A DNA stretch of 63,885 bases, filler included, from Schmidtea nova (Eukaryota): the NCBI GenBank assembly GCA_044892505.1. It is 4 parts of 2 records of this genome, joined end to end, with 100 filler letters (N's around TTAATTAATTAA, not from the genome) between each part and the next. Parts side by side here need not be neighbours in the genome. Positions count along the whole stretch, not along the records: positions 29,798 to 59,552 come from CM097882.1; 3 more parts are not named here. One strand, given 5' to 3'. The translations under genes were made by a program, and so were the position numbers. The number at the start of each line of letters is the position of its first letter. The stretch's first letter is position 1. Under the pieces are notes generated by a model. It searched no databases. It was not told where the DNA came from and saw nothing but the letters and a program-made list of their open reading frames with translations. This document shows, piece by piece, positions 3,958-59,550 of the stretch.

Positions 3958-4058
3958 CATACCGTGATGTGAGCCAAAGTTAGAATTGAGTTTGAAACGA
4001 TTTTTTTAATAAAGTAACTAATAAAAGATTACGTGACCCAGAGTCACATCACGGTATG
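3958..4058. repeat. Small MITE-like inverted repeat
   Basis: 15-bp perfect inverted repeat CATACCGTGATGTGA (3958-3972) / TCACATCACGGTATG (4044-4058); the TA|CCGTG start resembles Tc1/mariner ends. Confidence 0.5.
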
Positions 4059-4353
4059 ATTTGTTATAATATTTTGTGATATGATCAGGATTAACGCGTT
4101 GACCGTCGTATGAATCCAATACAATTCACACTACACTTGGGAAAATAATATTTGTGAATAATATTTTTACACACATTTTTAAGACCCCAAAGCCCATCGT
4201 GATCTATGTGTTATTTTGAGTTATTGCGAAAGACGGCTCGTGGAAAATATTCTTTTTAATATTACGGAACCAATATTTTAAAGCTATTATTATTTTCATT
4301 CTTATTAATTTATTTATATAAAAGTCTTTTTAATATTTAAATGATTTTTACTG

Positions 4354-4991
4354 TTTCTAAAGTCCGTGAGACATCTTTCATCATTCCAAGCGTTATTGCA
4401 ATCAGACCAAGGTAATTTGGAAGTAAATGATGCAAATAAATAGTAAAGTGACCAGGCTATAATCACATTGTAATAGACTGAAACAATAGTGGCAACAACT
4501 AGCATTGAATATCCAATTCCTGAATTCAGAAAAATTATCTTTAATAAATTAAACTTTTAGTTTTTGAAGTCGAACCCTTAAACATTGGTTGAACTTTCCA
4601 CACTGAAATTGGTCCTGAACTTGAAAATTGGCCGAGTGCCAATTCGAAATAGAATAATGGTATGCCAGCAATTAGAAGCATTATGAAATATGGAACAAGA
4701 AATGCACCTAAAAAAGAACATATTTGAATACAATTCCTAAAATGTAAATAACTCACCTCCGCCATGTTGATAACATAAATGAGGAAATCTCCACAAATTT
4801 CCCAATCCAACAGCATATCCAACACAAGAAAGAAAAAAGTCGAATCTTCCCGACCAGTTTCCGCGAGCTTTTGTTTTTTGAGTCTGAGAATCTATGCCAC
4901 TGATCTTGAAGAAATAACATTACAAAATTTCCAAAAAAAATATATTATTCACTTGTTCATTTGTTTTAAATGAATCTTCAATTGATGTCAT
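4354..4991 (-). CDS. SLC6 (sodium:neurotransmitter symporter) family transporter, 5' exons only (TM1-TM3 and start of EL2)
   Basis: Exons 4991-4953, 4904-4757, 4707-4576 and 4519-~4354 joined by GT-AG introns of 48, 49 and 56 nt give MTSIEDSF...[64 protein letters not shown]...[46 protein letters not shown], the classic SLC6 signature. Confidence 0.93.
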
Positions 4992-38900: not shown

Positions 38901-41900
38901 TCGGGCCTCTCTATTGTAATTCGTATGGTTGGTGTTGTTTGCTTATCTATTGCCTGGGGTTTTTTGTTTTCTGTTCCCTGTGTCTCTGTTCTTCCACATT
39001 TTCCGACGATGTAATCTCCTTTGTGTGACTGTTGTACTGTCATGGTTACTTTAGGTGTTTGGTAGTTTGCGCATGCGATTGTGTTGTGTGATCTTGGATA
39101 CTTTTGTTTTCTAACGGTGCATATTCTGTACCAGGTGTCTAGATCTAAGTCATCGATCTCTATGATCTCTTGCTCGTATTCTGAGATTCTGCAATCCATC
39201 GGACTATTTTGTTCCGTGATTTTGTCCTTTTTTGACCAACATACTCGTTCGATTCCTTTTGCGTTTTTTATTTGTATTATTGCCCTTTCTTCACATGTCA
39301 TTCCTTGACTTGGGTTAATTAACGTTAAAAGCACTGTTAATAATAGTAATTCTGGTCTGAAGAATGGTTTTATGGTTGATTTATAACCTGTTCTTTGGGT
39401 GTCATTTTTATCTTCTTGGTCGTTTTTTCTTTGTTCTGCCTCTTCATTTCTTGGTCTTTCGTCTTCATTCTTCTTTTCTTCCTTGTCTCGTTTCTTGTCT
39501 TCTCCTTCATTGTCTTTTTTATCGGGTGGTTCGTGATCGTTCGAATTTTCTGAGTTGTTATCGTCGTCACTGTCTGCATTGTCATCTCCCCCTGGCCCGT
39601 CGAAAATGTCGTCCTCGACATTGATTTCTTCTATCAATTTTGCATATGCTAATGTCGTTAGATTACTTGCCTCAAATTCTTGTGTTTCTACATGCTCCGG
39701 TATGACTTTGTTGGTGGATTTGTATTCCGAGATTTCCTTTTTGGCCTTGATCCAGTTGTTGATGTACGTCTTCATCAATTCTTTCCATTTTCCTGTGTAT
39801 TTTTCTTCTTTCGGGTTGTTGGTGATTCTCAGATCTTTTCTTTCCATAAATATCATCAATATCTCTGGCCATTTATACGTTATTAAGGCACTTCTTATGC
39901 ACCAGTTTTGGTTATGTTCTGTGAACTCATTAATCCTGAATGCTGGTTCGTTGGTATTCGGATTTATCCACGTAAGTATTGCTTCTGTTAGTTCAACATT
40001 ATGCATCATTGTTAGTACACTGGGTTTCTTGACCGTATCAGTTAGGTAATCTATTTCTTCCTGATTTGAGATTGTTTTAATGAAATTGACCATTTCCCAA
40101 TTATGTGTTAATAATGCTACATCCAAAATTGAATTATCTTTATCTGTCTTTCCTGTAAGTCCTGCACCTGCTTTGTATAGTTCTTCTAACACCTTTGTTT
40201 TCGTTTTGGCCCTTGCTGCAAATACCATGAGTGTATCTCCTTTCTCGTCTATCATATTCATGTTGCTTCCGCAATTTAGCATTACTCTTGCAATTTCTAT
40301 TACCTTCCTATCTTTACCGGTTCGTAAAGCTCTATGTATTGGCATTATTCCGTCCTTTGGTAGTAGGAATGCTACTGGCATCTCCTTTTTTATAGTCGTT
40401 ATATCGTTACCATTGTATGTTCCCTTTGCGTATGCGTGTACTTTTTCAACTAATGCACCAAGTATTTCTAGTGCATGTTTACAATTTTCGAATTCCGGCA
40501 ACAATTCTTTTGCTTTTTCTTGTATCGCATCTAGTCTAGCTTGGTATGGTGCTTCTGCTTTGAAGAGTGGTGTGAGTTTCTTGTTACTTTCTCTTTCTTT
40601 TTTCTCCAAAACCTGTTTACATTTCTCGGGGTGGTTTAAGATTTTTACTAATTCATCATACTCACTTACTATCGTCTGGTATTTCTCGTTAAAATTGTTT
40701 ATGTCTTTGTATGTTATTAGTTTATCAAGTGGTTTCGCACACCATTTCCCAATCTTGTTGAATAAGGCCTCCTTCTCTTTATCGAATTTGTGTTCTTCTT
40801 CATTCTTTGTGATGTTTATGTTTCCTCTGTCTAATAAGGCTAGTAATGTCTTTTGATCGCAAGTAAATTTCAAAAGGTATCTTAACAGCGCGTTTTGTCC
40901 TTCGCTGTACACTTCATTTATGTCTAAGACCCATGCATCATCTTCTGGTCGTTTCCATTTGATTAACTTACGGATCGTATTACATTTACCAATTTTTATT
41001 GCCTCTTTGATAATATCTCCTTTTATTAATTCGTCTATTTCCCACGTGGAGTTAGCTATTATGTATTTCAGCATTGGTTGGTGAGAACTCCATATTACGT
41101 GATTCAGCACTGTTTTGTCTTCTCTATCCCGTTCTGTCCAACTGAAATGAGCTTTTATCAACAAATCTACCATTTCTTTATCTGCTTGATGGATTGCTGC
41201 TGTCATTAATGGGGTTTCCTGTTCCCGATTCCCAACGTCCAAATGTTGGTTTGTTTCTTTGGCGATTTTTAAGAATTCCTTTGCTCTTTCTATGTTTCCA
41301 CACCTTATCGCCTGGTGTAAAGCTGGTTGTCCTTCTACATCTTTCAATAAGAGTATCTCAGGGATTCTCTCCAATAACTCAGAGATAATTGGTTTGGTTG
41401 GTAATCCTTGTGCGTAACCGCTAATTATATATCTAATGTCCCTTGATATGCCTGCTTCGTCTCTAACATGCCATCTTCCCATTATCTCTCTCGCCTTCAA
41501 TATGATTTCTTTATTTCTGATTTCCTTTTGCCTTATTTTCGCTTTGTCGTCTTCGCTTGTGTTTGCTCTGAGCATATTTATCCTGGCTGTTTGTGATCTG
41601 GTTATTATTCGATTTTCTGGTGTTGTAGTTATCGTTTTAGGCACTTTCTTACATCTGCAGGTGTTTACATATATGGGTCGTACTAACGGTCGATTTATTA
41701 GCTTAACTGTGACATTATTGTCTTTTTTGTATATAATCTCATAAGGTCCTCGTCCAGGTCTTTGAAGTTTCTTAACAGTTCCTGGTATTATTTGGGGAGT
41801 TTCTATTATCACCCAATCTCCGGGTTTTAGATCGTTTGCCTTAACATTTTTCTTCTGGTCGTGCAAGTCCTTATAACTTTCTTGATAAAATTTAATGTTG

Positions 41901-44900
41901 AGTTCTGCCGTCTTCCATATTTCCTGCATTCTTTCTTTGAATTTGGTTACGTAGTCGTCGTCTTCCATATATTGCGATAATGGTGGTTGATACTCCAAAT
42001 CTATGGGCATGTTGCATTCTCTTCCATACATAAGTTGAAACGGGCTTAGTTTTGTTGCGGCGTGTATCGACATTCGGTATGCCATTAAACATAATTTTAT
42101 GTACTCGTCCCAGTCAGTTTGGTGTCTGCCGACGTAATTTGATAACATTCTAATCAGTGTACCATTGAATCGTTCTGTTTGTCCATTCGTTTGCGGGTGG
42201 TACGGTGAAGTTCTCAATTTTGCTATTCTAAAATAGTTTGTCACCTCGTTCAATAACTCACTCATAAAGTTAGTTCCTTGGTCTGTGAGTATTTGTTTTG
42301 GAGTTCCGTATCTGCAACATATTTCTTCCACCAAAAGTTTTGCTACGGTTTTTGCTTTTTGGTCTTGCATGGCAAATGCTTCCGGGAATTTCGTCAGATA
42401 ATCCATTATCACCAATATATAGATATTTCCGTTAAGACTTTCTGGTAATGGTCCTATTACGTCCATTGCTATAGTTGTCATTGGCTCTGCTGGTATTGGC
42501 ATTGGTTGTAGCGGGTTTTTCCATTTCTTCCCACTATCCTTTCTGGTTGCGCAAGTTAGACAATTTTTAATCCATTCTTTAATATCTTCTTCCATTGTTC
42601 GCCAATAATATTTTTGTCTCATCCGATTAAATGTCTTTTTCTCGGACATATGACCTCCTAATTTCCGATCGTGGTATTGGATCATTATCTCTTTCCTTCT
42701 GTTTTCCGGTAAACACATCAATCTCTTTTCACCGTCTTGTATTAACAACCATCCTTTATTTATTATATATCGATGTTGATATTTTCCTATATGTTCCTTT
42801 AATTCCTTATTATCCTTGAATATATCCATATTTCGAGATGTTAGGAACTCTATGATCTGTCCCAATTCTTTGTCTTCCTGTTGATCTTTCTTTAACTCAC
42901 TAAAATCTAAATCTTCCGCTATTAACACACAAATTCGTTGTACATCCGGATCGGTTAATTCCGGGAATGTCAGTCTTGACATACAGTCTGCATTCGCATT
43001 TGCTCGTCCTGATTTAAATTTTATGTCTGGTGAGTACTCCTGTAACTGCATTGCCCATCGCATTAATCTACTGGATGTTTCCTTGTGCTGTCCTAACCAT
43101 ACAAGCGGTTGGTGATCTGTTATTATGCAGATGATGTGTCCCCATAATAAATATTTAAAGTGTTTAATTGCTAGTATAATTGCTAACGCTTCTCGCTCGG
43201 TTACTGAGTAATTTTTCTCATGCTTTTTGAATGTTCGGCTATAATATCCGATTACCCGTTCTTTTCCTTCGTCGTCGTATTGTCCTAATACTGCTCCTGC
43301 TGCATATCCGCTTGCATCTGTTGCAAGTAGGAATGGCTTCTTAAAGTCTGGGTGTACCAATATGGGTGCGGTTATCAGTTTATCTCTCAACGTTTCAAAG
43401 GATGTTTGTTGTTCATCTCCCCATATGAATGATACATCTTTCTTGACTAGTTCCTGTATAGGTTTTGCTATTCCGGCGTAATCTTTTATAAACTTTCTAT
43501 AGTATCCACATAGTCCGAGAAATTCTTGTATCTGGGTTATTGTTTTGGGTACTGGACATTCTTTTACCTTGTCGATATTTCTGGGATCCGGTTCTTTTCC
43601 CTTTGCTGACACTATATGTCCCAGAAATGTAACCTTTTCTTTTGCCCAATCACATTTGGATGGCTTGAGTTTTAACTTCCATTGTCTAAGTCTAACGAAT
43701 ACGTCTCGAATATCCTGTAGGTGTTGTTCGAATGTACTAGAGTAGATTAATAAATCGTCGATGTAGACCATGCACTGCTTTATTCCATGGGTGACGAAAT
43801 TCATGCATCTCTGAAATGATGCTGGTGCGTTCGTTAGTCCAAATGGCATCTTTCGAAATTGATATAGGTCTCTACCGATGGTAAAGGCAGTTTTCTCTTT
43901 ATCTTCTTCCTTCATTTTTATTTGCCAGTATCCGCTTTTCAGATCTAGTGATGTAAAATATGCTGCTCCCTGTAATGTTAATAGCATTTCGTTGATGTCC
44001 GGTAATGGGTAAGTGTCTCGTTTTGTTACCGTATTCAATCTTCGATAGTCGATGCAGAATCTCTGTGTTCCATCTTTCTTCTTTACCATTACCACTGGAA
44101 ATTGCCAGGGTGAACAACTCGGTTCGATCACTTCTGCATCCAACATTTTCTTCACTTCTGCTTCCGCTACTGCTTTCTGTGCTTCTGCTAGTTTGTACGG
44201 CCTTAATGCAATTGGTGTTTCGTCTGTTAATGGTATCGTATGTAACGTGACATCACATGTTCCTAGATCTAAATCGGATGCTGCAAATATATCCTTATAC
44301 TCCATCAGCAGTTTTTCTAACTGCTGCTTTTGGTCCTTATTTAATAATTCACTATCAATATTCCAGGTTGGTTTTTTATCTTTCTCTGCCCCTTCTATTG
44401 GTATTTCGATATCCATCATTGGGGTTAATTTTCCTAGTCTTTCGTTTTCGTAGATTATTTTATCCTCCTCGTCGAAATTTACTACGTTTATTGGGATTTC
44501 TCCATTATCGTTTATGTTGACTAATCCTCTTGCCATTGGCAACGCTTTTCTTTTCTCGAATCTTTTACTTGGTTCAAAAATCATATCCCCTTGGATTGTC
44601 GGATCTATTTTTACGTAACATATTTTTTCCTTTCTTGCCGGTATTATCATTTGCTTTGAACTCGTTACCTTGGCTTCTATTGCGCATATTTGTCCGGTGC
44701 GATCTTTTAATCTCATTGTTCCGAGGTCGATTACAATCTCTTTAAATAACGCTGGCATCAAATCTGTTCCGATAATGCAAGGTACGCTTAACGCTGGTAT
44801 GACTGCTACGTACGTATCGATTTCTGTGTTTAAGTGGCGTATTTTTACCCACCATCTTCCTGCTACTTCTACAATTTCTTAGCTACATGCAATTACATGG

Positions 44901-45154
44901 ACGTTTGTTCTTTCTATTTCCCGTCTTTGCTCTTGTGGTATCCATTTGATGTCGATGGCGGAAATGTTTGCTCCAGTGTCGATCATTGCTTCGATTTCCC
45001 TTCCGTTAATCTCTATTGTTGTGGTTAACACTGGACCTGTGTTTGATGACATTACGGCGATCGTATGTGCGTCTCCTTGTGGATCTACACTTCTACATCT
45101 TCTCATTTTATAATCTTCTGGTATCATGGGGTATACATTTGTCATTGGCATCAT
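35924..45154 (-). CDS. pol: Pol polyprotein PR-RT-RNaseH-IN extended by 2x ankyrin modules and 2x signal/FN3-like/TM modules; two in-frame stops (44879-81, 36800-02)
   Basis: IDTGA..CIIGTDL protease; RFCIDYRRLN, FRKMPFGLTNAPASFQ, YIDDLL RT; TDASG, EREALAI, TDHQPL, NANADCMSR RNase H; H..GGH..CLTC, AMDVIGP, TDQGTNF, YHPQTNGQTERFN, GPYEI integrase. ORFs 44879-45154, 36800-44761 and 35924-36799 share one frame. Confidence 0.95.
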
Positions 45155-48100
45155 CTACATCGTGGTCGTTCTTCCTCCTTGTAGTGGTTCTTGATACATT
45201 GTTGGTGGAGGTGCGTAACATTTCCACGCGTCGGCTGGATTCTTTTCGATGTATTGTGGTGCTTGGTTCTTATACACTTGTCCTCCCTTATAGTCGTCAT
45301 CGTCATCATCGTCGTCACTCGAATCATTTTGGGTTTTATATCCTTTCATCCTTTCCCATAAACCTTTTCTTTCTCTCTTGAGCTGTTGTCTTGCTTGTTC
45401 GTCATTCATTATCTTTTTAAATTTTCGTCCTACTTCTTCATCTGTTCCCTTCATTTTTGCGAGTATCTTCAACAATCTCTTTATTCGATGTATGTCCTTT
45501 GAGTGTCCGTGCAACACCATCGTTTTCGCAAGGAATGGTAAAAACCCTACTACCATTTTCCAATTCACTTTCTTTTCTCTCTTGTAGATATCGAAACACG
45601 CTAATATTTGCGTTATTATCACTCTGACGATTTGTATTATTAATATAACCCCCAGTATTCCCGCCATCATTTGTCCGAATATCAGGAATCTTCCCCACAT
45701 TGCTTTCATCATATTTTCTGTGGCTTTCTTGAAATGTGTTGGTGACAACAACAGTTCATAATTCGGTCCTTCTCGATAATTCGTTCCTCCCGTTATCGTT
45801 ACGATATTTGACAGTAATGCTTCTCTTCTCGCCGGGAATAATATATTCTGCCTTGCTGCTTCTAAATCCTTTGGACTATATATTCCGTTGTTTGAGACAT
45901 CTACGTCGCTGAATTGCCTATCTTTTGACAACTGCATTAGCTTGAATTCTCTTGGTGCTATCACTTCGGCTCTTCCTGGGAACATAACCCATTTACCATC
46001 TCGTTTCTGATAAAGCGGTCCGTACGCATTACTACAGTTGAATGGATTTGGTTCAAAGCCTGGTGGATTGATGATTCTCGTCACCAGTTGAACGTATCGT
46101 ACTTTTCCTTTGTAATCGATTTCTAACTCATTTGTACAGGTTCCAGGTTTCAACTGTGTTGTTGCTGCTAGCGACGCGTGTGTCTTTTCACAAATGTATA
46201 CATACATTGCTTCTCCAACCACTCTTCCGAAATGTCCTTCTCTCAGTGGTAATAATGGCATCGCGCTATCTGGATTCGTAATCGCTACGGCCAACTTTGT
46301 CTTTAATATTTCTCGATTCAGTATACAATCATTGTTTATCAGATCGTAGTACACTTTTTGTAATGAGGCTTGTCCTCTATGGAATAAGAAATCCATTTTA
46401 TTATTCACATACAAGTGTAGTTTGATATCCATTGTGTCAATTTTGGGTTTCGCATTCGGCACTTCTTGTTTTGACACATATATTCCTGGATAATTCGTTT
46501 CGTATACCGTTGTACTACACTTAAGGGTTGCTTTACCTTTTATGAATCTCATTCCCACATCCTGATTTGTGGTTATCAACACTGATGGTGTGGCTCTCAT
46601 CTCTATCCGTTTTTCTCTATGATCTGGTTTCAATTGTCTTTTATTCTCTAAAGCTTCCTTGAGATGCTTTGCTCTAGCTTTGTCGTCATCGTCTTCTTCC
46701 TGGAACGTTTTTCCTTGGATTTCGTCGAACTTTGCTCCTTGCAGCAGTTGTAATTGACATTCGTTCACCTTTGGTTTGTACACTAATGTTGACATTCCCG
46801 TTTGACACATGCTCCTGTCGATTTTACACATGGATAACGTTTTCATTTCTCCCGTTGTGGGTTCGAAGAATGCTTCGTAGCTTTTCAGTTCGACTATATA
46901 CGTATCCATCACCACTAAATTGGTTGCGAGTGCTCCGAATATCGGGTAGGTTTCTCCTTGACAATATACTTCTCCTCCCGTAATCCGTCCTGCTACATAG
47001 TATGTCTGTTGCAGCATCATTCCTGGCTTTCCTTTTATCTTGATTTTATCTCTTGTTGTTACTTCTCCATGTTTAAACAATGCTTCACAGTCTTCTCCTT
47101 GTAATATGATTGGTTCTCTTTCCGTTCCTGGCATGACAATTGCTGAATAATGTCCTCTCCCACAGTAGAATGCGAATCTCGTCTTCTGCACCTTACATTC
47201 ATTCACCATTGTCTTTATGAGTTCTGCTTCTTGATACACGTGGTACCATTGTTCCTTTTTAATCTCCTTTAACTCTACTGGAGTTGCATCTTTGCATTGC
47301 TCCGTACCTCTCAATGAATACTTTTCACCTAATGCCATCCGATCGCAATCAAATACTTCGAATGCTGTTGCGCCATCGGTACTAATCATCCATATCAACA
47401 TCATCATTATGATAGAACTCAGATTCATTGATGACTTGGCGTTTCCTGTTCCTGTTTGTTCTTTTTCTAGTTCTCCCAATATTTTTTCGAATTTCTTTTT
47501 CATATTCTTGGCTTGCGTTTTCTTCTGGTTAGTTTTTATAAATGTTTCCAATCCTCCTTTGTTAATGACGTAGGGTTCTATTTCTCTAGCTATAATCTTT
47601 GCGGTATTTTTTATATGTCTCTCTAATGCAGTGGGTTTTGGTCGGCCTCTACTCAGTGTCAACAGATTGTAGATAGTGTATGCAATGGCTATTACGTATT
47701 TGTTATCTGTTTCCGCTCCTTCTGTCAATTTCTTTATTAACGTAGTGGTTCCTTGCCAGTCTAAATGATTTGACTTCGTCTTTTCTTTTATGAATTCCGG
47801 TAAGATGGGTGCGATTGCGCTGTGTAGTGACTTCGCCTTTTCGCTTATTTCAGTTATACGCCAGTATATTCTTAATTCCGGATCAATTGTTGCTAATATT
47901 TCCATTATTGTTTTCGATATCCATTCCTCCCCTTGACATTTTGGTGTTGTCTCTTTTTCTTTTGTCTCCGCGATTTTATTTAATTTCCTTAGACACAATT
48001 CCCATTGATCTTGTCTCTTTTCATCCTTATTTCTGATGACTACATTCGCTGGATCTGTCTTGGGTCTACCTCGAGGTCGTCTATCCATTCCTGTACCTGT

Positions 48101-48536: not shown

Positions 48537-51500
48537 TTATGGTTTACGTTTCAATGGTTGACCCGCTATTGCTTCCATTGTCAAGGTATTCATGAGATCT
48601 AGTTGTGCTGGCGTTATTCCAATTTCCAAACTGTTATCTAATGATCGTCCTTGGTGTTGTAAATGGAATGGTGGTTCGTATCTCAATTTCTTTTTAATAT
48701 CTCGGATTTTTTCTGCTATTCCTACCCAAAATTCTTCCTTATCCTTGTTTGGATATATTATTCTTAAATGTACTTTTTGTGGAATTTCCTGCGAGAATTC
48801 TTGATTTCTCCATTTCCTAATTACGTGGTCTAGTTGTTCCGGACACCACTCGTTAACTCTTTTATATTCTGCGATTGCTTTTGCCACTTTACGCAAGCAT
48901 GTTATATCTTCTCCATTAACCACGAAAAAATCTGCGAGACCTTTTATTACTTTTCTCTTACCGTGCGCATTAGTTTTTAATATTTCGACAAATTCTTCCG
49001 TTTTTTGCTTTTCCTTTTCTAACCATATAGCCGCTGTTTCTGGTCCATCTAGGTCTATTGGCGTAGCTTTCCTTGTTACCATGCAAACCCTTCCCATTTC
49101 TGGTTCGCAGTCATCTTCCATTCCTTTTTCATATTCTTCTTCATATTCACCTTCTTTTGGTTCCCAACATTTTCCTTGCTCGTTCCATTGTTTTTCTACG
49201 GGTGTTCGTATTCGTCTGTTGAGATTGAGTTCTTCCAATACATTTTCCCACTCCGGCCAAATCCGCCAATTTCGATAGATGTCTACTATTTGTTGTAATT
49301 TGCGCACAACTTCTTTTTGTCGTTCCCGTTCTTTTTTCTCATCTTTAACAGTTTCCCTTGGTGTATCGTCCATTCTGATCACGTGGATTGTTTGGTAATT
49401 ATCCCATATGCCAATCTTATATAGTCGTCTCTCATCGTGATCCCACAATATATGTTCGTTATATTTCATGATTATATCGTCTTCCCATTCGTCTTCTAGT
49501 TCTCTTTGCACCAGTGTCTCGTTTATGACCTTTACTAATTCTCTTATGGTGCAATCTGCTACCACTTCAATTTCTTTGGTATCCTCATTAGGTAACTCTA
49601 TTGAAATTTTTAGATCCGCTATTTTCCCTTGTCTGAACATTGTTTTTCCCATTTTTGCGATTAATTTGTCGTGTGAGATCTGTGACCATCTCGTGTGACT
49701 TGTGTCACGTATGCACTCGATGCATCGTTTCAGCTTCTCGTATTCGCTTCTCATTAACTCTTTTCTATGTTTTTTGACTTGTGGTATGATTTGTTCTATC
49801 AGGGAATTTAGATTTTTTCGTAAGATTCGTCCTTTCTCGTATTCTAACCGTGGTTTTATTCTCCTTTCAAAGCACGTGTTTGCTTCATTTGCAACTTCTT
49901 GTAGGTTCTCTTCTTCCTTTTCATCGCATATTGATAACAGGGTTACTTCTCCTGGCCATATACCTGTTTCTACTAAGTGCGTTCTTTTCTTTACGAGTCT
50001 ATTCTGCGAATAGATGAATTTGTTTTTATATGAGCTCCCTAGCCTGTCCTCTACCCATCTGTAGATATCGTCTGTAAATGGAGTTTTGATCCAGATTCTT
50101 GGTGTAGATGTATTTATCATTATTGAGATGGTGTAATTGAGGAGTGGTTCCTCTATTAATTTCCCTACGTATCGATTTAACATATCTACTTCTCGGTCTT
50201 GTAACCATTCTTTGTAGTTCATTTGCAATAATGCTTTCATGAATTTCCTATATTGTTTCTTGTCCATGAATTCTTCGTTATATATTACTTCTAGCGAATT
50301 ATCTAGTAATTTCTGGATTTCATCTACTTTTATCTGAGTAGGTTCTGAGGTCTTTATTACTTTTATCTCTTTGTTTTCGTCTTCGGGTTCGTTTAATATG
50401 TCTCCTGCTAGGCTACTGATATCACTATCTTCTTCCTCATCGGAAAACTCTCTGGTGGTATTTCTTAACATATTAATGTGTGCTATTTGGTTCGTTTCCC
50501 CCTGTATATTCTCCGTTGGTTCTGGTTCGTTTTTGTCAATCTCTGGTGTTGGTTCACTCTTGTCCTCTATTACTTCGACTTTTCTCATTTTCTTCTCCAA
50601 CTGGTCTATCTCTTTCAGACGTCTTCTTATCATTTTTCCTTTAAATATTCGACTGATTCGGGTTTCGTGACGTATTCGTGCTGGAGTTTTCTCTGGTTCT
50701 ATTTCTTTGATAATCATCACGTTTCTTTTTGTTTCTACTACTCCCATGTTTTCCCATATATCCGTTAACTTCAACTTTACTTCTGGCGCACCTTCTATTT
50801 GTAAGAACGCTTCTCTGGGAAGTTTCGTTACTCCTGGAACCATCTGGTTTACTTTATTGAACAGTATTTCCACCTCTTCTTTTACGTTATATTGGAATCG
50901 GAACATATGGTTGTTGGGCATGATTACCATCATTCCTTTTTTCCAAATTTTCCTCCTCTCTTCCTGGTTTATCTCAGTTTCTACTTCCTTTTCTATTTCT
51001 TTTTCTGCTTCCTTATCGTCTTGTATTACTCCTTTTCGACTTCCATTGTCGGTTGGATTCGAATTTATTTCTAATGTGGTTTCTTTCTCTGTTTGCTTTG
51101 TTGCTCTCATCATGTTAATTCTTAGAGGTTGTCGCTCTCTTTCTTGCTGTTTTTGTTCATCTTCTCTTTGTATTCTTGCCCATTCCTGAGCGTGTCGTGC
51201 TTGACTTTCTCGATTCAACCGTTCGTTTTCACTTTCTATCTTTCTCATCATGCTAATTTGTTGTTGATTGGTTTGCGGATTTCCTCTCGTCGTGTTGTTT
51301 ATAAGTTCCGTCAACCTTTGGACTTCTTGCATCAAATGTATTTCTTTGGTGGTGGTTTTGTTCTGACTATTGTTATTATTGACTTGTTGGTTTCCATAAT
51401 CTTGTCGGTTTACGGTATTTGTTTGATTTCCGTAATTTTGTCGGTTTCCGTTGCTCTGCCAATTTCCTCGCTGGTTACTTTTTTGTCCGCAATTTCTTGA

Positions 51501-52910
51501 ATAGTGACCAGGTCGTCCGCAGTTAAAACAGGTTATCGTAGAACATCTACTCTCCGAGTGTCCTTTAACTCCACATTTTCCGCAATTCAAATTTTGATAA
51601 CATTCCTGCTGCCAATGTCCCAACTTTTCACATGTTTTACATTGTTTTGTTTGTCCTTGAGGGTTGTAATTGTTTTGGTTTCCAAAGTTCTGCACTTTAT
51701 TTCCTTCATTCCTTCTTTGAGGGGGTGGTCGGTTTAATTGTTGCGAATTTGGAATGTGATTGTTGAGATTTACTTCTGGTTCAGTTTGTTCTGTGTCCAT
51801 GGCTAAATAAATTCTGCCCTCACTTCCTATCATATGCAATTCGAATCTGTTAGGTGTTTCTAACGCTTGATCTATGGTTTTGCATCCTTGGCATCCAACT
51901 TGCGCTCTTATGTCAGGTCTTCTTAATCCTCCTATGAAGATGGCTGCCATTAGTTCCTCGTTTATTGGACTCCCATCCTTAAATACCGATTTTGCTAATT
52001 TTTTCAGTTCGCTCGCGTATACCGCGTTAGACTCATTCATCTTTTGTTTTCTCATCGAAAATTCTATGAATGCTTCGCTTAGCTCTTTATTTATTCCAAA
52101 TGTTTGTTGGAAAAAGTCCTTTATCGCTGGCCAGTTTGCAGGTGGATTGGTACCATTTTTCGCTTCCAAATATAGGTCCAATGCACTATCTTTCAAATAT
52201 AGCTGAATTCTGCTTACCGTTGTTTCGGCTTTCCATTTGCATACTTCCACGAATATGCCAAATTCCTTTAAAAAGGTTTCTAATTTACTTGCATCTCCGT
52301 TAAACGGTTCTCCTGAAAATTTATCCTTTATTTCTTCTCTTGGTTCACCCATTTCAATTCCGCTGTCTTGAGTTGTTTTACTTTCGTTTCCTCTTGTTTC
52401 TAGTTCGTTGTTATGTTCGTCTTCTGTTTCACTCGAGCTTGAATCGCTTTCTGTTTCTCTTACTACTTCGTTATCCGATATTATATTTTCGTTATCACTC
52501 TCGTTGGTTTCTACTTCTGGTTCTACCTCGTTTTCTACTTCTTCGATATTATCGTTGTTAGTTTCGCCGATTTCTCCTTCTTGTTCTATCTCGTGTTCTA
52601 TTTCTTCGATATTATCGTTGTTAGTTTCGTCGATTTCTATTTCACTTGTTTGGTTCTCCTTGGGTTCCGCTTGGTTTTCCTTATTACTTGAGCTGTTGCT
52701 TACTACCGACAATTTATCGTTTTCGATAATCGCTTTATCTCTTATTATCTTCCTTGCTTTACTCCCTTGTAGATTTTTGTTGTTATCTTTGCCGGCTTTC
52801 TTCTTTTTTGTTGGGTTTGTTGTAGTACTAGTTTTGTCTTTTTTGTTAATATCGCTGCCGACTTTCTTTTCTGTTGGCTTTATTACGACACTCTTTACTC
52901 CTGTTCTCAA
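48537..52910 (-). CDS. gag: Gag (capsid-like, three CCHC knuckles) with a ~900-aa C-terminal extension including two ubiquitin-like domains
   Basis: FNGDASKLETFLKEF..RKQKMNESNAVYASELKKL..FIGGLRRPDIR capsid pattern; CKTCEKLGHWQQEC, CGKCGVKGHSESRC, CFNCGRPGHYSRNC. The ORF start is a TTG; the first ATG is near 52352. Confidence 0.92.
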   Translation of the reverse strand: MRTGVKSVVIKPTEKKVGSDINKKDKTSTTTNPTKKKKAGKDNNKNLQGSKARKIIRDKAIIENDKLSVVSNSSSNKENQAEPKENQTSEIEIDETNNDNIEEIEHEIEQEGEIGETNNDNIEEVENEVEPEVETNESDNENIISDNEVVRETESDSSSSETEDEHNNELETRGNESKTTQDSGIEMGEPREEIKDKFSGEPFNGDASKLETFLKEFGIFVEVCKWKAETTVSRIQLYLKDSALDLYLEAKNGTNPPANWPAIKDFFQQTFGINKELSEAFIEFSMRKQKMNESNAVYASELKKLAKSVFKDGSPINEELMAAIFIGGLRRPDIRAQVGCQGCKTIDQALETPNRFELHMIGSEGRIYLAMDTEQTEPEVNLNNHIPNSQQLNRPPPQRRNEGNKVQNFGNQNNYNPQGQTKQCKTCEKLGHWQQECYQNLNCGKCGVKGHSESRCSTITCFNCGRPGHYSRNCGQKSNQRGNWQSNGNRQNYGNQTNTVNRQDYGNQQVNNNNSQNKTTTKEIHLMQEVQRLTELINNTTRGNPQTNQQQISMMRKIESENERLNRESQARHAQEWARIQREDEQKQQERERQPLRINMMRATKQTEKETTLEINSNPTDNGSRKGVIQDDKEAEKEIEKEVETEINQEERRKIWKKGMMVIMPNNHMFRFQYNVKEEVEILFNKVNQMVPGVTKLPREAFLQIEGAPEVKLKLTDIWENMGVVETKRNVMIIKEIEPEKTPARIRHETRISRIFKGKMIRRRLKEIDQLEKKMRKVEVIEDKSEPTPEIDKNEPEPTENIQGETNQIAHINMLRNTTREFSDEEEDSDISSLAGDILNEPEDENKEIKVIKTSEPTQIKVDEIQKLLDNSLEVIYNEEFMDKKQYRKFMKALLQMNYKEWLQDREVDMLNRYVGKLIEEPLLNYTISIMINTSTPRIWIKTPFTDDIYRWVEDRLGSSYKNKFIYSQNRLVKKRTHLVETGIWPGEVTLLSICDEKEEENLQEVANEANTCFERRIKPRLEYEKGRILRKNLNSLIEQIIPQVKKHRKELMRSEYEKLKRCIECIRDTSHTRWSQISHDKLIAKMGKTMFRQGKIADLKISIELPNEDTKEIEVVADCTIRELVKVINETLVQRELEDEWEDDIIMKYNEHILWDHDERRLYKIGIWDNYQTIHVIRMDDTPRETVKDEKKERERQKEVVRKLQQIVDIYRNWRIWPEWENVLEELNLNRRIRTPVEKQWNEQGKCWEPKEGEYEEEYEKGMEDDCEPEMGRVCMVTRKATPIDLDGPETAAIWLEKEKQKTEEFVEILKTNAHGKRKVIKGLADFFVVNGEDITCLRKVAKAIAEYKRVNEWCPEQLDHVIRKWRNQEFSQEIPQKVHLRIIYPNKDKEEFWVGIAEKIRDIKKKLRYEPPFHLQHQGRSLDNSLEIGITPAQLDLMNTLTMEAIAGQPLKRKP

Positions 52911-53520
52911 CGGGATTACTTTTGTATACTCAATTTTCCTGTCTTATCTCTTATCGTTTTCTGATTCTTCTTGTTTGATTGATTGATTTGATTGATTTGT
53001 ATATCTAAAATACAAAGGTCCTCAACGATACATTATTGTTGTCGTCGCGCTTTTATTCCATTTCTTTCGGGATTACTTATTACTGGGTTTTCATTATTTC
53101 CCCATTCCCAGATTCCCCTTTATTTTTAGTCTATTTAATTTATCTATAGACTGGTCACAATTATCTATTTATGTCGTAATAATTATCTATACTTTTATAA
53201 ATCAATTACTTTTCCCACAGTTTCCCAATTTATTGGTCGCTCGAGCGCTCTAATTCCTTGAGTCTTTCTGACTCGTTTATCATTATTTATCATCTCTATT
53301 CATTATTCCCTGCTAGCAATCGTTTTACTCATTCTGCCGGTTGCTCCGGTCAGCCCAAATTTTTTCTATTCTCCTTGCATGCTTTACTTAAGGTTGCATA
53401 ATCAGCTTTACTCGCATTTCTTAACTACTAGTGCGCACTATTCTAAATCTCGTCGACGATTACACTATGGGTCTATATTCCCTCTGTTACTAATTACCCG
53501 GATATCTCTATAATTCTCTA

Positions 53521-53776
53521 TGGCTCTTTTGGCCTCAATTTTAATATCTCACATGGCTCTATTGGCCTTAATTTAATATCTCAACTGGCTCTACTGGCCT
53601 CAATTTAATCTCTCATATGGCTCTATTGGCCTCAATTTAATCTCTCACATGGCTCTATTGGCCTTAATTTAATATCTCAATTGGCTCTATTGGCCTCAAT
53701 TTAATATCTCGATTGGCTCTATTGGCCTCAATTTAATATCTCAATTGGCTCTACTGGCCTCAATTTAATATCTCAA
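53521..53776. repeat. 32-bp tandem array (8 copies) in the element leader
   Basis: TGGCTCTA(T/C)TGGCCTCAATTTAATATCTCA.. units start at 53521, 53554, 53586, 53618, 53650, 53682, 53714 and 53746. Confidence 0.95.
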
Positions 53777-53816
53777 TAATGCCTAGCTAGGTCATTCAAT
53801 ATGGCTCATTGGCCAC

Positions 53817-53955
53817 AACCCTTTGTTTCAAGGGACAACCGCTAATAACCCTTTGTTTCAAGGGACAACTCTAATAACCCTTTGTTTCAAGGGACAACTC
53901 TCATAACCCTTTGTTTCAAGGGACAACTCTCATAACCCTTTGTTTCAAGGGACAA
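53817..53955. repeat. 29-bp tandem array (5 copies) with an internal hairpin
   Basis: AACCCTTTGTTTCAAGGGACAA at 53817, 53847, 53876, 53905 and 53934. Confidence 0.95.
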
Positions 53956-54427
53956 ACCTCGTATAACTTTACTTAACCGGTTAATCACAATTCCTAACTT
54001 CGCTAGCGACTTAAATTTCTCAGCTGAGTTATAACTACTTCTATGCGAGCTGATTATGCACCTTTTTATACCGTCATTCATTTTCTATTTTATCGTAACT
54101 ATTTTCTGATCAGTCTGCTTCAATATTTTATTAATTTTTCTATGCGCGCCTTACTCCATCAAGAGTTCCCTATCTCTCTCCCCAACCAAAATATACAAAA
54201 AGATCGCGTTGGTCTATTAATGCGGGATGTGGTGATCAGTCACATCACAAAAACTTTCCAACATTTGCGATGGGCCCCTTTCTATATGCTCTGAATGGGT
54301 TGATCAATCGGTGCCTCCCAGAGGATTCTTACCGGACTACTTTGTAGTAGCTCAAAAATTATTTAAATACAATGATTGTTCCCATGATTCACCATTCGAC
54401 ATTTTACTAATCAACTCTAAACATTTA

Positions 54428-54931
54428 TTACAAATAAACTATAATTTTTTCATTCACAGTAAAGTTGCACATCGGACACCGGTCACACTTGCTGGCACAG
54501 ATCTTACAAAAACGGAAATGTCCGCAAGGTAAAAACATAATTTGTATCTCGTTGTTTTCACATATATAGCACTGTCGGTATTTTTTCGCTGCTTCTACTC
54601 CTTGTATTCTCCATCGATTGTATGTTGGGGTTAATTGTTGTTCTATTTGTCTGCATCTAATGTTTAGTTCCGCAGTCTCTAGTCGTGCTCTGTACCATTT
54701 GTAGCGGGTTTTTATGTCGATTTTACTTGTTCCTTCTGTTATCTTTATTAATTCATCAGTTTCCTCGGTCTGTGTTGTGGGTTCTTGAAATTCAATTTCT
54801 CTAAATCGGTTTATTTTCTTGCCAATTGTTGCTAATGTTTCGCTTTCTGTGTTGAGAAATTCTTCGATTTCTTTCAGTTTTTCCTCCATTTGCTGAATAA
54901 ATAATCGTTTTAACTTTGTTGTTTTTATCAT
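54428..54931 (-). CDS. Coiled coil + C-terminal IAP-type RING finger protein (167 aa)
   Basis: CYICENNEIQIMFLPCGHFRFCKICASKCDRCPMCNFTVNEKIIVYL at the extreme C-terminus, the IAP/XIAP-type RING pattern; no BIR domain. Confidence 0.88.
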   Translation of the reverse strand: MIKTTKLKRLFIQQMEEKLKEIEEFLNTESETLATIGKKINRFREIEFQEPTTQTEETDELIKITEGTSKIDIKTRYKWYRARLETAELNIRCRQIEQQLTPTYNRWRIQGVEAAKKYRQCYICENNEIQIMFLPCGHFRFCKICASKCDRCPMCNFTVNEKIIVYL

Positions 54932-54935
54932 TTTT

Positions 54936-55021
54936 AAAGTAGTAATATGTCTCGTTTTGTGTCTTTTAATATTTATTTAAAGTAGTAATATGTTTCGTTT
55001 TGCATCTTTTAATATTTATTT
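54936..55021. repeat. 43-bp tandem duplication just upstream of the RING ORF
   Basis: AAAGTAGTAATATGT(C/T)TCGTTTTG..TCTTTTAATATTTATTT twice. Confidence 0.85.
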
Positions 55022-55237: not shown

Positions 55238-55255
55238 ATCCCGGCTGAGCCGCCA
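55238..55255 (-). promoter_or_regulatory. Primer-binding site, tRNA-Pro-like
   Basis: TGGCGGCTCAGCCGGGAT lies 6 nt after the LTR 3' end and is complementary to a tRNA 3' end ..ATCCCGGCTGAGCCGCCA, which resembles eukaryotic tRNA-Pro (..ATCCCGGACGAGCCCCCA). Confidence 0.8.
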
Positions 55256-55261
55256 AATTTA

Positions 55262-58200
55262 TGCTGGGTTCATGGACGGTGTAGTAAACATTCAAATGAT
55301 TGCCAGGGATCTCCCATCCATGATCATGCATAAATAGTCGTAAGCTACACTCGAGCGCCCTTGATTATTTCCCTTGATAACCAAGTTGGTGTTGCGCAGG
55401 GTGGTTAAACAATGAGGGGCAGGTGAGCACTATTGCTAGGACTACTCCCCCTTTATGTTTACGGGTTCACGCGGCCGTAGAAGGACTTACGCAATTATTG
55501 TTCTATTGTGTGTGTGTGATGTTATGTATTTATCATAACAAAAAAAAAACAAGCAAGCAAAACGAAACTACGAATTTGATAATATTTAAATTCTTTATCG
55601 CTACTCCTTTCGTTGTGTGACGGGTAATTTAATTATATGAATTAGGTAATCGAAGGAAATACTTAGGAAATAACAACAACAACAAAAACGAACAAAGATT
55701 TAATTAACTCCAAAATCTGACATCATATTCTATCTGCTACAGAAATTCTTTGAAAATTCCTTCAGGAGGGAATATCTCTGATAACCACTCGGCTTCCGAC
55801 ATTTCTGCCATAGTGGTTACTTGTGCTTGCAGCTGCTGAGAGAACAGCTTTCTTTGGCGACGGCGCTTGGAACCGATTCGCTTTCGCTTGTTCGTTTTCC
55901 CGACGGGGTTTGGCGTAATGGCGGCTTTCACCCGGCTCTGCACTGTGGTTGCTTCGAGCCCATCGGTATCCGTACTGACCGAGCAGGCCACTTTCTGTTC
56001 TCCTACCCATTTCTGGTAGGTGATGGGTCGGATTTGTGCTTTCAATTCGGACTCGATAAATGAAGTCGTCACCGAATGGAGACATCGGCGCAACTCAATT
56101 TTTGTTGCTTCCCATTCGGTGCGATAATCGTCAGCTGTCTTTTGAGCCCTTTCCGTCCGACTCATCTGCTCCTTCATACGGGCTGGGGCGAACCAGCTGG
56201 TCCGTAAATACTGAATCTGAGCTTCTGCCTTGGCTCGTAATGCTTTTTCCTGATTTAGCTCTTTTTCTAAGGCTCGGCGGATCCTCCACGCCTTGTCCAA
56301 TTCTCGCTGTTGGCTAGTTTCCGTCATACTAAATAACAAACCCATTTTATGATGCAGCAATTATGTTACCAACGATTAATATTATCCGTCGAGTGTAAAA
56401 ATTATAGGATTAAATAAATAGAAATACATTTAACTAAGAACAAGCAAAACACAGATCAACACCATTTAATTTATAGAAACATTTAGTTCATAGTAATGTG
56501 AATAGAACTTTTAGTGGCAAACGCTTCGCTTGAGGCCGTGAACCGGGGTAATATGCAACCCGTGATTGACTGGATCTCGTCGGATGTGAGCCATCGAACA
56601 GTTTAGTTTGGGGCGTCCATGGTCCGCTTTCGGCAAGTGGTTCAGAATCAAACCGAATTGAAGCAGCATGTGGGGCGAGACGTATCCCCAGTGGATTACG
56701 GTCGTTGGGTTGCCTGCGATGTCCGTCAACACTATGATGAATCGAGCTGTCGTTTCGGGGTCTCTTTCGTCTGAATTTTTCCATCCGGGGCCTCCTCGAT
56801 ATATGATGGTATCTAATCCACCGGTTCAAATCGAAAATGGACATTTTTTCCCAGTTCCCGTCTCCACTTGTACATCAACGCATTTAGCGTTCTTAGAAGT
56901 TCCTGTGGAAGCGACTTCAATTTCTTCTGTTGCGTCCGGATTAGAGGATTTTCGTCCCGTGCCACACGACGTTGGGTTGTTAGAAATTCATCCAGTATCG
57001 TTGATTTCATCTGAGAAAATAATAATGCTAATAAAATTTACTGTGACGAATCCGCAAATTTTGGTGAGACCTGATGAAATGTGCTCCTCTCGTTGATCAA
57101 CAAAACAAAAAAAATATGAAAAGGAGGAATAAAAAAAATTTTCTAAGCTATTCAATTAACACCGTCGCTATATACAGCGATCGGGATACGTTTATTAAAA
57201 ATTTACATATTATCACCTGCGCTATTTACAGCGATCAGGTTACGGTTTTACTTATTCAATCAGTAGTGTCAATCTGATTATGTTGTTATTTATATCTTAA
57301 TTAAAACTATCGTTGAAATGTCGAAATCGTCTCGGTGTGTCCGGACATTATTTCGATCAGCTATGTGGATTCGAAAAATCGTGTGCATATGCTAAATCGA
57401 TTTAGTTGACATGATAATTGATACTGTAGTTTATTCTCCCCTGTCTGATCGAACGTTAATTAACTAATGTTAAACACTGTCTACTAATTTTACCCGTGTC
57501 CTTGTCCCTGTACAACTTTACCGTAAAGTTAAACCTCTGATAAAAATTAAATTAAATAAAAAATACCAATAGAAACTCTGCTCACCATCTTGTGGAACGG
57601 TGAAATCCCACATTTACGGCTTACTCCCTCGCAGCGTGAGCTACTGAGGAAGTATATTTATCATATCATAAACTAATAGCATAAGAAAATAGAGCAATTA
57701 ATAGTAATAAATTATATTAAATGAAATGAATGGGAATCATGTAAAACATATCATAAAATTAGTTCAAATACAATACAACAAAATTTACTATTTAAATCCA
57801 AGATGCAGCGTTTCCAAAATTTTACACAATATTTGTCGTATCAAAGTTGATGTAACTGACTGTTATAGATCAGTTCGGTAGCTAAGTTTTTAGGTGGTGT
57901 CTTTATGATTTTTGGATCGGTATTTATACTGATCCAGTTGGTCAGATTGACCAATCAGGATCAGGCCGTCCATCAAAGTAATTTTGTTATTTTATTTTAA
58001 TATAAACCATTTTAAATTTCCGGTTCAGATTTCTCGCTGGGTGGTCCCGATTTTTTCAAGTAATTAACCAATTAATTGTACTTTTATTTGATTTTATTTG
58101 TAATTTTCTTATTTCAGACCCCCATACTGCTCGTTCCCGTGTCAATTTGATTTTCTTCCTTTGCTGGAAATTTAGTAATTATTATTTATTATTTTATTTT

Positions 58201-58306
58201 GATTTTTAATTTAGGTTTTTTGAATGTTTTTGTGGTTATTATTTGTATTTATTGTTTAAATTAGTACAATATTTTTGTCTTTTTAGACCAATTGGTGGGC
58301 CCAACA
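55262..58306 (-). repeat. 5' LTR, 3,045 bp
   Basis: Starts TGTTGGG and ends CCCAGCA (6/7 terminal inverted repeat), followed directly by the PBS; repeated at 29798-31951. Confidence 0.92.
55737..56345 (-). CDS. LTR-encoded ORF-B (~202 aa): coiled coil, Arg-rich motif, acidic/aromatic C-terminus
   Basis: ATG at 56345 (MGLLFS..); KRKRIGSKRRRQRK; EMSEAEWLSEIFPPEGIFKEFL. The visible part of the 3' LTR copy (29798-29989) is identical. Confidence 0.7.
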   Translation of the reverse strand: MGLLFSMTETSQQRELDKAWRIRRALEKELNQEKALRAKAEAQIQYLRTSWFAPARMKEQMSRTERAQKTADDYRTEWEATKIELRRCLHSVTTSFIESELKAQIRPITYQKWVGEQKVACSVSTDTDGLEATTVQSRVKAAITPNPVGKTNKRKRIGSKRRRQRKLFSQQLQAQVTTMAEMSEAEWLSEIFPPEGIFKEFL

Positions 58307-59550
58307 GGAGAAATGAAACTTGCCAAAGAAATAAGATTTAAAAATAAAATAAATAATATAAACAGCACCCTAAACTGGATAAATGGTGACGAAAAAGGTG
58401 ATTCTAGTGGCCCTAAATGCATATTCAGTAAAACCCGAACATCAATAAAGAGACTAAGAGAAAAATTTGACATAATAATTAAAATTATCTATAGAGACAA
58501 TAATTACATGCTAGAATTAAAAAAAATGAACTTATATATTATATAAACTACCTTAATATTGACTCTACCTCTGAAATCTTACACAACCTTACAAGTGCCA
58601 TATATGCTTCAAACTGGTATAACATGACTTGTCAAGGACACATAGCCCATACAATTGGAGAAAATAAACACTCTGCTCATCTAATAAAACATACAGACCT
58701 GTCTGATCACCAATACTTCTTCCTAATCAAAGCCAGAAACAATAGCTTAAATTTAAAATACACACAACACAGAATCACAGAAAAACTTGATATTAACTGT
58801 AGACACTGTCACACACACTTTGAAACACAAATTCACATTTTTAATCACTGCCCACATACACAAAATGCTCGTAGGAACAAACACAACAACGTACTACTTG
58901 CAACTAAAGACTATCTAATATCTATCAATTATGAGGTAGACATAGAAACAGCACCACCAGGAGTAACCACCACACTAAAGCCTGACCTAATAATAAAATC
59001 TCCAAAAAATAAACTTATTCACATTGTTGACATCAAAGTACCCTATGATAACAAACATTTTTTTATAGAAACCAGACAACAAAACTTTGAGAAATACAGA
59101 AACTTAGCAAAAGAAACAGACACAATAAACAAATGTAAAACAACACTATCTGCTCTTGTTATAGGAACCCTTGGCTCATGGGATGATGACAACGATATCT
59201 ACCTTAGGAAAATAGGACTAAATGAAAATGAAATCAAAGCACTTGCCAAAATAACAATGAAAGTAGCAGTAACATCGAGCCATAGTATATATATGGACCA
59301 CATACTAAATAAACCTAATTAATAATAATTTTCTATAATCTACCCCCAAATCATAAATCAAAACTAATTAAAATAACTTATTAGGATGTATAATTATTCA
59401 ACACTATATTGCGAGATACCTACCAATACTTAAAATATACCTCTATCGGCATTATGGACACTGTTTACAATTATATTTTTTGCGATTACCTATATTACTA
59501 TTATTAGTACTATTATTGTTGTTATTATTAGTATTATTACTGTTATTGTT
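58307..59550 (+). mobile_element. 3' part of an RLE-type (R2/R4/NeSL-like) non-LTR retrotransposon
   Basis: CRHCHTHFETQIHIFNHC zinc knuckle, then KPDLII..IVDIKVPYD..NFEKY PD-(D/E)xK endonuclease; 3' UTR ends in TATTA-type repeats. Confidence 0.88.

Follow-up and report, generated by a model that had tools for sequence, protein, structure and literature searches.

A predicted class III fusion glycoprotein between Gag and protease in a probable Burro-type Ty3/gypsy element of Schmidtea nova

The window, a stretch of 63,885 nucleotides from the Schmidtea nova assembly GCA_044892505.1 in which four parts of two records are joined by filler letters, contains a large retrotransposon that is read from the minus strand. 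Its long terminal repeats (LTRs) are recognizable as direct repeats at 29798-31951 and 56154-58306, which are 99.63% identical over 2154 nt, and both copies begin with TG on the minus strand. The 5' LTR (55262-58306 (-)) starts at 58306, and its inner end was placed from an 18-mer starting with TGG at 55238-55255 (-), which was read from the sequence and which we take, by convention, to be a primer binding site (PBS)-like site; the window contains no tRNA gene with which it could be compared. The 3' LTR (29798-31951 (-)) is cut by the gap at 29797. From the position of the PBS-like site (55255-55238), the LTR would be ~3 kb long, the internal region ~23 kb and the whole element near 29 kb; with the LTR end so placed, the internal region (55261-31952) would span ~23.3 kb, i.e. 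more than 20 kb. A target-site duplication is unreadable, as the 3' LTR ends in the gap and the flanks resemble different non-LTR elements, and no classical polypurine tract is evident ahead of the 3' LTR. The minus-strand order is a RING ORF, gag, a Bcl-2/env ORF, protease, reverse transcriptase (RT), RNase H, integrase, ankyrin repeats and 3' accessory ORFs. The LTRs, a CCHC-type Gag and the order protease-RT-RNase H-integrase identify a Ty3/gypsy LTR retrotransposon. Judged by LTR identity this copy is young, yet the predicted full polyprotein cannot be made from it, as the reading is broken by one frame change and two stops.

Several ORFs and repeats lie within or beside these boundaries. 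The ~3-kb LTR contains ORFs of 100-200 codons at 55737-56360 and 56488-56874 (-), the second of which recurs in the 3' LTR at 30132-30682; Pfam returned no match for the two LTR-internal ORFs scanned. An RT-coding element that appears Penelope-like by eye occurs twice in the window, at 27942-29697 (+) and 125-1157, with 96% identity. To the right of the 5' LTR, 58307-59400 (+) encodes a C-terminus resembling the restriction-like endonuclease of what we take, by eye and from its motifs, to be an R2/NeSL-type element.

The first coding unit of the element is a 5' accessory ORF (54428-54976 (-)) with a C-terminal C3HC4 RING finger (PF13920, E 4.3e-11). The leader between this ORF and gag carries two tandem arrays, with units of 32 nt and 29 nt, at 53508-53986. 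The gag ORF (48537-52943 (-); PF00098, E 7.5e-7) encodes three CCHC knuckles at 51641-51530, upstream of env, followed by a long C-terminal extension, and it matches the N-termini of the related proteins P0004, P0009, P0017 and P0018 by BLAST. Its first ATG is at 52352 and is preceded by ~197 open codons (52352-52943 (-)) that are acidic and partly repeated, possibly reflecting a spliced or non-AUG gag start. Two candidate ubiquitin-like segments in the gag extension had no significant match in the PDB.

Downstream of env, the N-terminal part of an aspartic protease with a DTG motif (44879-45154 (-); PF00077, E 5.2e-6) lies in the frame shared by env and pol, and 36800-44878 (-) encodes the C-terminal half of the protease, RT, RNase H, integrase and ankyrin repeats, and then repeated modules with hydrophobic segments (Pfam matches RVT_1, RT_RNaseH, Integrase_H2C2, rve and Ank_2). 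The modules past the ankyrins, at 36800-39400 and 35924-36799 (-), contain Cys and Trp residues and alternate with signal- or TM-like segments. They have no Pfam match, and their layout suggests further membrane proteins that would be cut from the same polyprotein. A complete TRAF-like protein (RING, zf-TRAF and MATH; MATH_2 E 5.8e-22, zf-TRAF E 7.4e-8) is encoded by a 3' accessory ORF at 33973-35352 (-), and two more 3' accessory ORFs at 32155-33886 (-), encoding a coiled coil and a small protein with hydrophobic segments, had no Pfam family above cut-off. A TAG lies 2-3 nt before the first ATG in all four 3' accessory ORFs checked (35798, 35349, 33856 and 32715 (-)); it is absent just before the ATG of the env, gag and RING ORFs (3/3), and the env ATG follows a purine-rich stretch that has no splice-acceptor-like TAG.

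The env sequence lies within a stop-to-stop ORF of 1131 codons (48550-45155, minus strand) and is encoded at 47428-45584 (-) as a signal-like segment, an ectodomain of ~555 residues with 14 cysteines, and one transmembrane (TM) helix. The ectodomain (45695-47362 (-)) was assigned to the class III (gB/Monjiviricetes-type) fusion glycoproteins with PF24664, AlphaFold (AF2) and Foldseek; the helix (45584-45694 (-)) is the one place in the ORF where 19-residue hydropathy peaks at 1.6 or more; and a cytoplasmic tail or linker (45155-45583 (-)) ends at the in-frame stop 45155-45157. A sequence-only reading of the window had placed a chuvirus-like class III glycoprotein between gag and protease, citing its motif and cysteine pattern, and both its coordinates and its pre-pol position proved correct on the minus strand, with gag upstream and protease, RT, RNase H and integrase downstream. 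The class assignment is likewise borne out, as Pfam PF24664 (Monjiviricetes_fusion) matches with E 2.2e-69 and 234.5 bits against a cut-off of 27, and so is the cysteine pattern, with 13 of the 14 env cysteines conserved at 90% or above in a 121-sequence alignment.

The AF2 model of env, built from a 100-sequence alignment, has a mean pLDDT of 89.1 and contains a long helix at residues 337-384; a basic REKR motif near 46618 falls in a low-confidence loop. Its fold was assessed on this monomer model. A structural comparison with gB, which the sequence-only reading had proposed, gave a match: among the Foldseek matches listed from the PDB, herpesvirus gB appears throughout (best E 1.2e-13), and VIA-align superposes env on post-fusion gB with Z 11.0 and rmsd 8.0 over 418 aligned residues, ranking post-fusion gB forms above pre-fusion forms. 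The best match in the viral structure library BFVD is the G protein of Tacheng tick virus 4 (E 6.6e-38, TM 0.57, 21% identity). Profile and predicted fold thus both identify the putative env as a chuvirus-like class III fusogen.

In this copy a single frame holds env, protease and pol, interrupted by a stop at 45155-45157 and by another, within the protease domain, at 44879-44881; gag is read in a different frame, and the shift from the gag ORF to the Bcl-2/env ORF falls at 48537-48553 (-). The stretch is present in four sequencing runs from one organism and one study, and contigs of three of these were compared. The stop codon 45155-45157 is not shared by the contigs in any of the three runs (all listed depth differs), and contigs of related copies have loose ends at 48545, the frame-change site, in two of the three. 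Each of these three runs contains 2,688-4,818 matching contigs, and these numbers point to a multicopy family; the runs have only 43-46% of sampled words in common and may represent another strain or species, and contig depth in them cannot give copy number. Across the env ectodomain (45504-47173), contig depth sums to 2-3x that of the flanks in 3/3 runs, a kind of depth that cannot rank regions.

A search of 1.84 billion representatives returned, as top matches to env, long proteins with 28-45% identity, followed mostly by stand-alone glycoproteins of ~650 aa with 20-29% identity. Thirty-two relatives, which are long proteins chosen among the matches and not a random sample, were scanned with Pfam, and 22 of these encode G and then protease in one ORF (one of them weakly, E 0.0018). 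Twelve of them continue to integrase by way of RT and RNase H, and in P0017 and P0282 one ORF spans gag to integrase. These relatives are known as proteins only, and a metagenome scan with env yielded no confirmed locus among 100 pattern matches. Because relatives carry a single ORF, the predicted in-frame layout is taken as the family state and the present copy as damaged. The sequence-only suggestion that env is possibly in frame therefore stands for the family, by the 22 of 32 relatives, while in the window copy the frame is interrupted by a frame change and two stops. In many relatives (P0003, P0004, P0005, P0152 and P0279-P0285) env and RT are separated by two or three aspartic-protease-like domains, and in several a further such domain follows integrase; P0152 shows 7 Pfam stretches and 4 DTG-type motifs, and the window element shows one protease domain. 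P0008 (HBK71150.1), an env-protease-RT-integrase polyprotein belonging to this family, is deposited as a protein of a Flavobacteriaceae metagenome-assembled genome (MAG); most likely its DNA is from an animal and was misbinned.

Directly before the env signal lies a domain of 155 residues with a predicted Bcl-2 fold (47489-47953 (-); AF2 pLDDT 67.7). VIA-align matches it to Bfl-1 (6rjp) with Z 14.0 and rmsd 2.8 over 139 aligned residues, and rows 1-34 of the ranking are Bcl-2-family or poxviral Bcl-2-like chains, with unrelated rows after rank 36 scoring no more than 6.0. The Foldseek matches listed are all of the Bcl-2 family, with E values (4.6e-3 to 2.5e-2) below significance. Single-sequence searches of Pfam and the PDB missed the domain. 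A 6-sequence profile matched Bcl-xL at E about 1e-3, ranked behind two designed coiled coils; the five added rows of its alignment were chosen by eye for BH2-like similarity, and profile matches on those rows are therefore circular.

The signal-peptide-like hydrophobic segment of env (47363-47428 (-)) starts with the ATG at 47428 and would be cleaved at its end. Scored as a 13-residue mean hydropathy of at least 1.6, a hydrophobic segment precedes the (F/Y)DC start of the ectodomain by no more than 40 residues in 22 of 22 proteins, versus 8 of 286 upstream control windows, and among the 21 proteins long enough to score, 20 have a TM peak of at least 1.6 past the ectodomain. In the window element and the five relatives having a Bcl-2 domain, that domain ends ~10-45 residues before the signal. 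Most relatives lack Bcl-2 yet keep the signal, and because of this lack Bcl-2 appears to be optional cargo.

The history of this glycoprotein was examined with trees that were midpoint-rooted for drawing only and in which viral sampling is thin. In a FastTree analysis of 121 glycoprotein domains (from 126, after near-duplicate cluster members were dropped), the window env falls in a group of 23 with support 0.988 that includes every row marked as a polyprotein. An IQ-TREE analysis of 41 hand-picked rows places 19 polyprotein-type envs on one side of a 100/99 branch, apart from the only two named chuvirus G proteins included, from insect-genome glycoprotein clusters and from P0057; three of the 19 (P0001, P0007 and P0011) have no in-frame protease and were counted among them for an N-terminal Bcl-2-like extension. 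The joining of P0039 with P0063 was flagged as a long-branch join. P0057 contains DUF5641 followed by G and is taken as BEL/Pao-type from its DUF5641 domain. In AU tests, trees uniting P0057 and the window env are rejected (p 1.7e-6), as are those uniting the window env with the two named chuvirus G proteins plus their two sisters (p 1.5e-5). A tree built from 40 RT-RNase H rows has a 99/99 branch that sets off the window RT, 11 env-bearing RTs and 6 of the 7 ungrouped rows; none of the 21 RTs lacking a visible G is on that side.

These trees fit one old env acquisition that was inherited with the RT and that was separate from the mosquito Pao event. The independent capture suggested by the sequence-only reading holds insofar as env stands apart from P0057, the one BEL/Pao-type G protein sampled, in both the AU test and the tree comparison that reading had called for, but the acquisition would be old and family-wide, not element-specific. 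That comparison also left env outside the two named chuvirus G proteins, and a chuvirus as direct donor is not sustained: with 21% identity and a separate 100/99 group, env is not nested in Chuviridae G. A Monjiviricetes/chuvirus-like glycoprotein pool may have supplied it, and calling the event a chuvirus capture says too much about the donor.

The layout itself is already published, and the element is a further member of a described Burro/gB-type errantivirus kind. As described in the accessible text of PMC6431247 (2019), which cites Jurka 2007 and Grohme 2018 on Burro/GYPSM1, planarian Burro/GYPSM1 elements exceed 30 kb and encode a Gag with CCHC knuckles, MATH/TRAF, BCL2 and ankyrins; their env lies between BCL2 and protease, matches fusion glycoproteins of arthropod and fish mononegaviruses, and is termed the first case of an in-frame env between gag and pol. 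By that description, the window element resembles them in its total of ~29 kb and internal region of ~23 kb, its three-knuckle Gag, the order BCL2-env-protease, its ankyrin repeats and MATH/TRAF cargo, and a mononegaviral-type env. It differs in its interrupted polyprotein, in a RING ORF 5' of gag and ~1,500 aa past integrase, and in having TRAF/MATH as a complete 3' accessory ORF, whereas in the two described planarian elements it lies inside ORF1 or upstream. BIR, SUMO/ubiquitin-like and dUTPase-like motifs had no Pfam match in the window element; the methods given in the accessible text of PMC6431247 include HHpred, which is more sensitive than the Pfam search run here.

The accessible text of PMC13524379 catalogues errantiviruses of Nematoda, Bryozoa and Platyhelminthes that carry an HSV/gB-type ENV in GAG-ENV-POL order, and its supplementary file 1 lists six Schmidtea mediterranea elements, with 1-215 copies, among 9 Platyhelminthes rows. 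The window element shares with these the gene order, a gB-like ectodomain between signal peptide and TM, and a multicopy state; Bcl-2, which the window element has, other cargo and polyprotein topology are not discussed in that text. The supposed novelty of a pre-pol env, implied by the sequence-only reading, is thus superseded by the in-frame BCL2-env-protease order of 2019 and by this catalogue. Anakin, a group of mosquito Pao elements with a chuvirus-derived glycoprotein (PMC7642597, accessible text), likewise combines a Monjiviricetes-type G with an LTR retrotransposon; it is BEL/Pao with G after pol, whereas the window RT matches and neighbors Ty3/gypsy-type RTs and env precedes protease. 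The Pao-type P0057 similarly has G after an integrase-associated domain, and its G belongs to a different clade from the window env. The G proteins of Chuviridae (Tacheng tick virus 4 and Wufeng shrew chuvirus 2) and herpesvirus gB share with env the cysteine scaffold, the class III fold and PF24664, at identities of ~21% (chuvirus G) and 10-13% (gB), but they are stand-alone viral genes with N-terminal signals and lie outside the clade of the window env.

The reading that we hold to be very probable is that this glycoprotein is the env of a giant Burro-type Ty3/gypsy element, that in intact relatives it would form the middle module of a Gag-Env-Pol polyprotein predicted to thread through the ER membrane and to be cleaved into a class III fusion protein, and that it goes back to a single old acquisition. 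Viral polyproteins with internal signals serve as the model for such a topology. By this analogy, Gag and Bcl-2 would be made in the cytosol, the internal signal would send the ectodomain co-translationally into the ER lumen, and signal peptidase would cut before the (F/Y)DC motif. The TM helix would then stop transfer, keeping tail, protease, RT and integrase cytosolic, and the protease would free Pol. Env trimers on budding particles could fuse these with neighboring cells. The ancestor of the lineage would have gained env once, long ago, from the Monjiviricetes/chuvirus-like pool, and its descendants would have inherited it with the RT.

Other explanations differ in either the origin or the expression of env. 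Recent capture of a chuvirus G gene by this Gypsy element alone would account for the chuvirus and chu-like G proteins at the top of the BFVD structural matches and for named chuvirus G among the sequence matches, but the nearest relatives are retroelement polyproteins (28-45% identity, against mostly 20-29% for full-length stand-alone G), the AU test opposes both a clade of env with chuvirus G (p 1.5e-5) and one with P0057 (p 1.7e-6), and the env-bearing RTs form one group, which together render such a capture highly improbable. Somewhat less remote, and still improbable, is expression of env as a separate cistron, either with its own start at the ATG 47428 or with a programmed frameshift combined with readthrough of the stop. 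The window copy does have a frame change before the Bcl-2/env ORF and a stop after it, the signal peptide starts with Met, and a 1:1:1 ratio of Gag, Env and Pol, as a single polyprotein would give, is unusual in retroelements. Against this, the post-env stop is absent from related contigs in all three runs and these diverge at the frame-change site in two of three, the second stop, inside the protease, shows that the window copy is decaying, relatives are single ORFs, and the env ATG is preceded by a purine-rich context with no acceptor.

A third explanation concerns use alone and is compatible with the preferred reading on origin: the fusogen fold may have been kept not for particle entry but for a role in the secretory pathway or on the cell surface, whether in receptor interference, in fusion of cells with one another or as cargo that the polyprotein tolerates. 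Host-modulating cargo is plentiful in the element (Bcl-2, TRAF, RING and ankyrin), and the accessible texts of PMC6431247 and PMC13524379 report no infectivity for Burro-type elements. Conservation of signal, cysteines and TM across deep relatives, and the continued coupling of env to Gag and Pol in one ORF, argue the other way, and we consider a purely non-entry use unlikely, if less so than the two preceding alternatives.

What the present analysis adds to the published layout is a class III model of high confidence, a match of the preceding domain to the Bcl-2 fold, and trees for the in-frame env lineage. In these trees the in-frame envs form a lineage of their own that travels with one RT group, and this makes a recent capture from a chuvirus less credible than an old acquisition distinct from that of the mosquito Pao elements. 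In cellular Bcl-2 proteins, the tail helix is a membrane anchor. Because Bcl-2 ends ~10-45 residues before the signal, we tentatively suggest, as an idea with clearly less than an even chance of being right, that one hydrophobic helix could act as the internal signal of Env and then, after signal peptidase cleavage, be left as the C-terminal membrane anchor of Bcl-2. Such a dual use of signal and anchor was not found in the accessible text of PMC6431247 or PMC13524379, and it offers a testable part of how the polyprotein would span the ER membrane. If the idea is true, one polyprotein would yield an apoptosis regulator anchored in the membrane, together with a fusogen and a Pol held on the Env tail, and this tethering of Pol may lead to its being co-packaged into enveloped particles able to pass from cell to cell.
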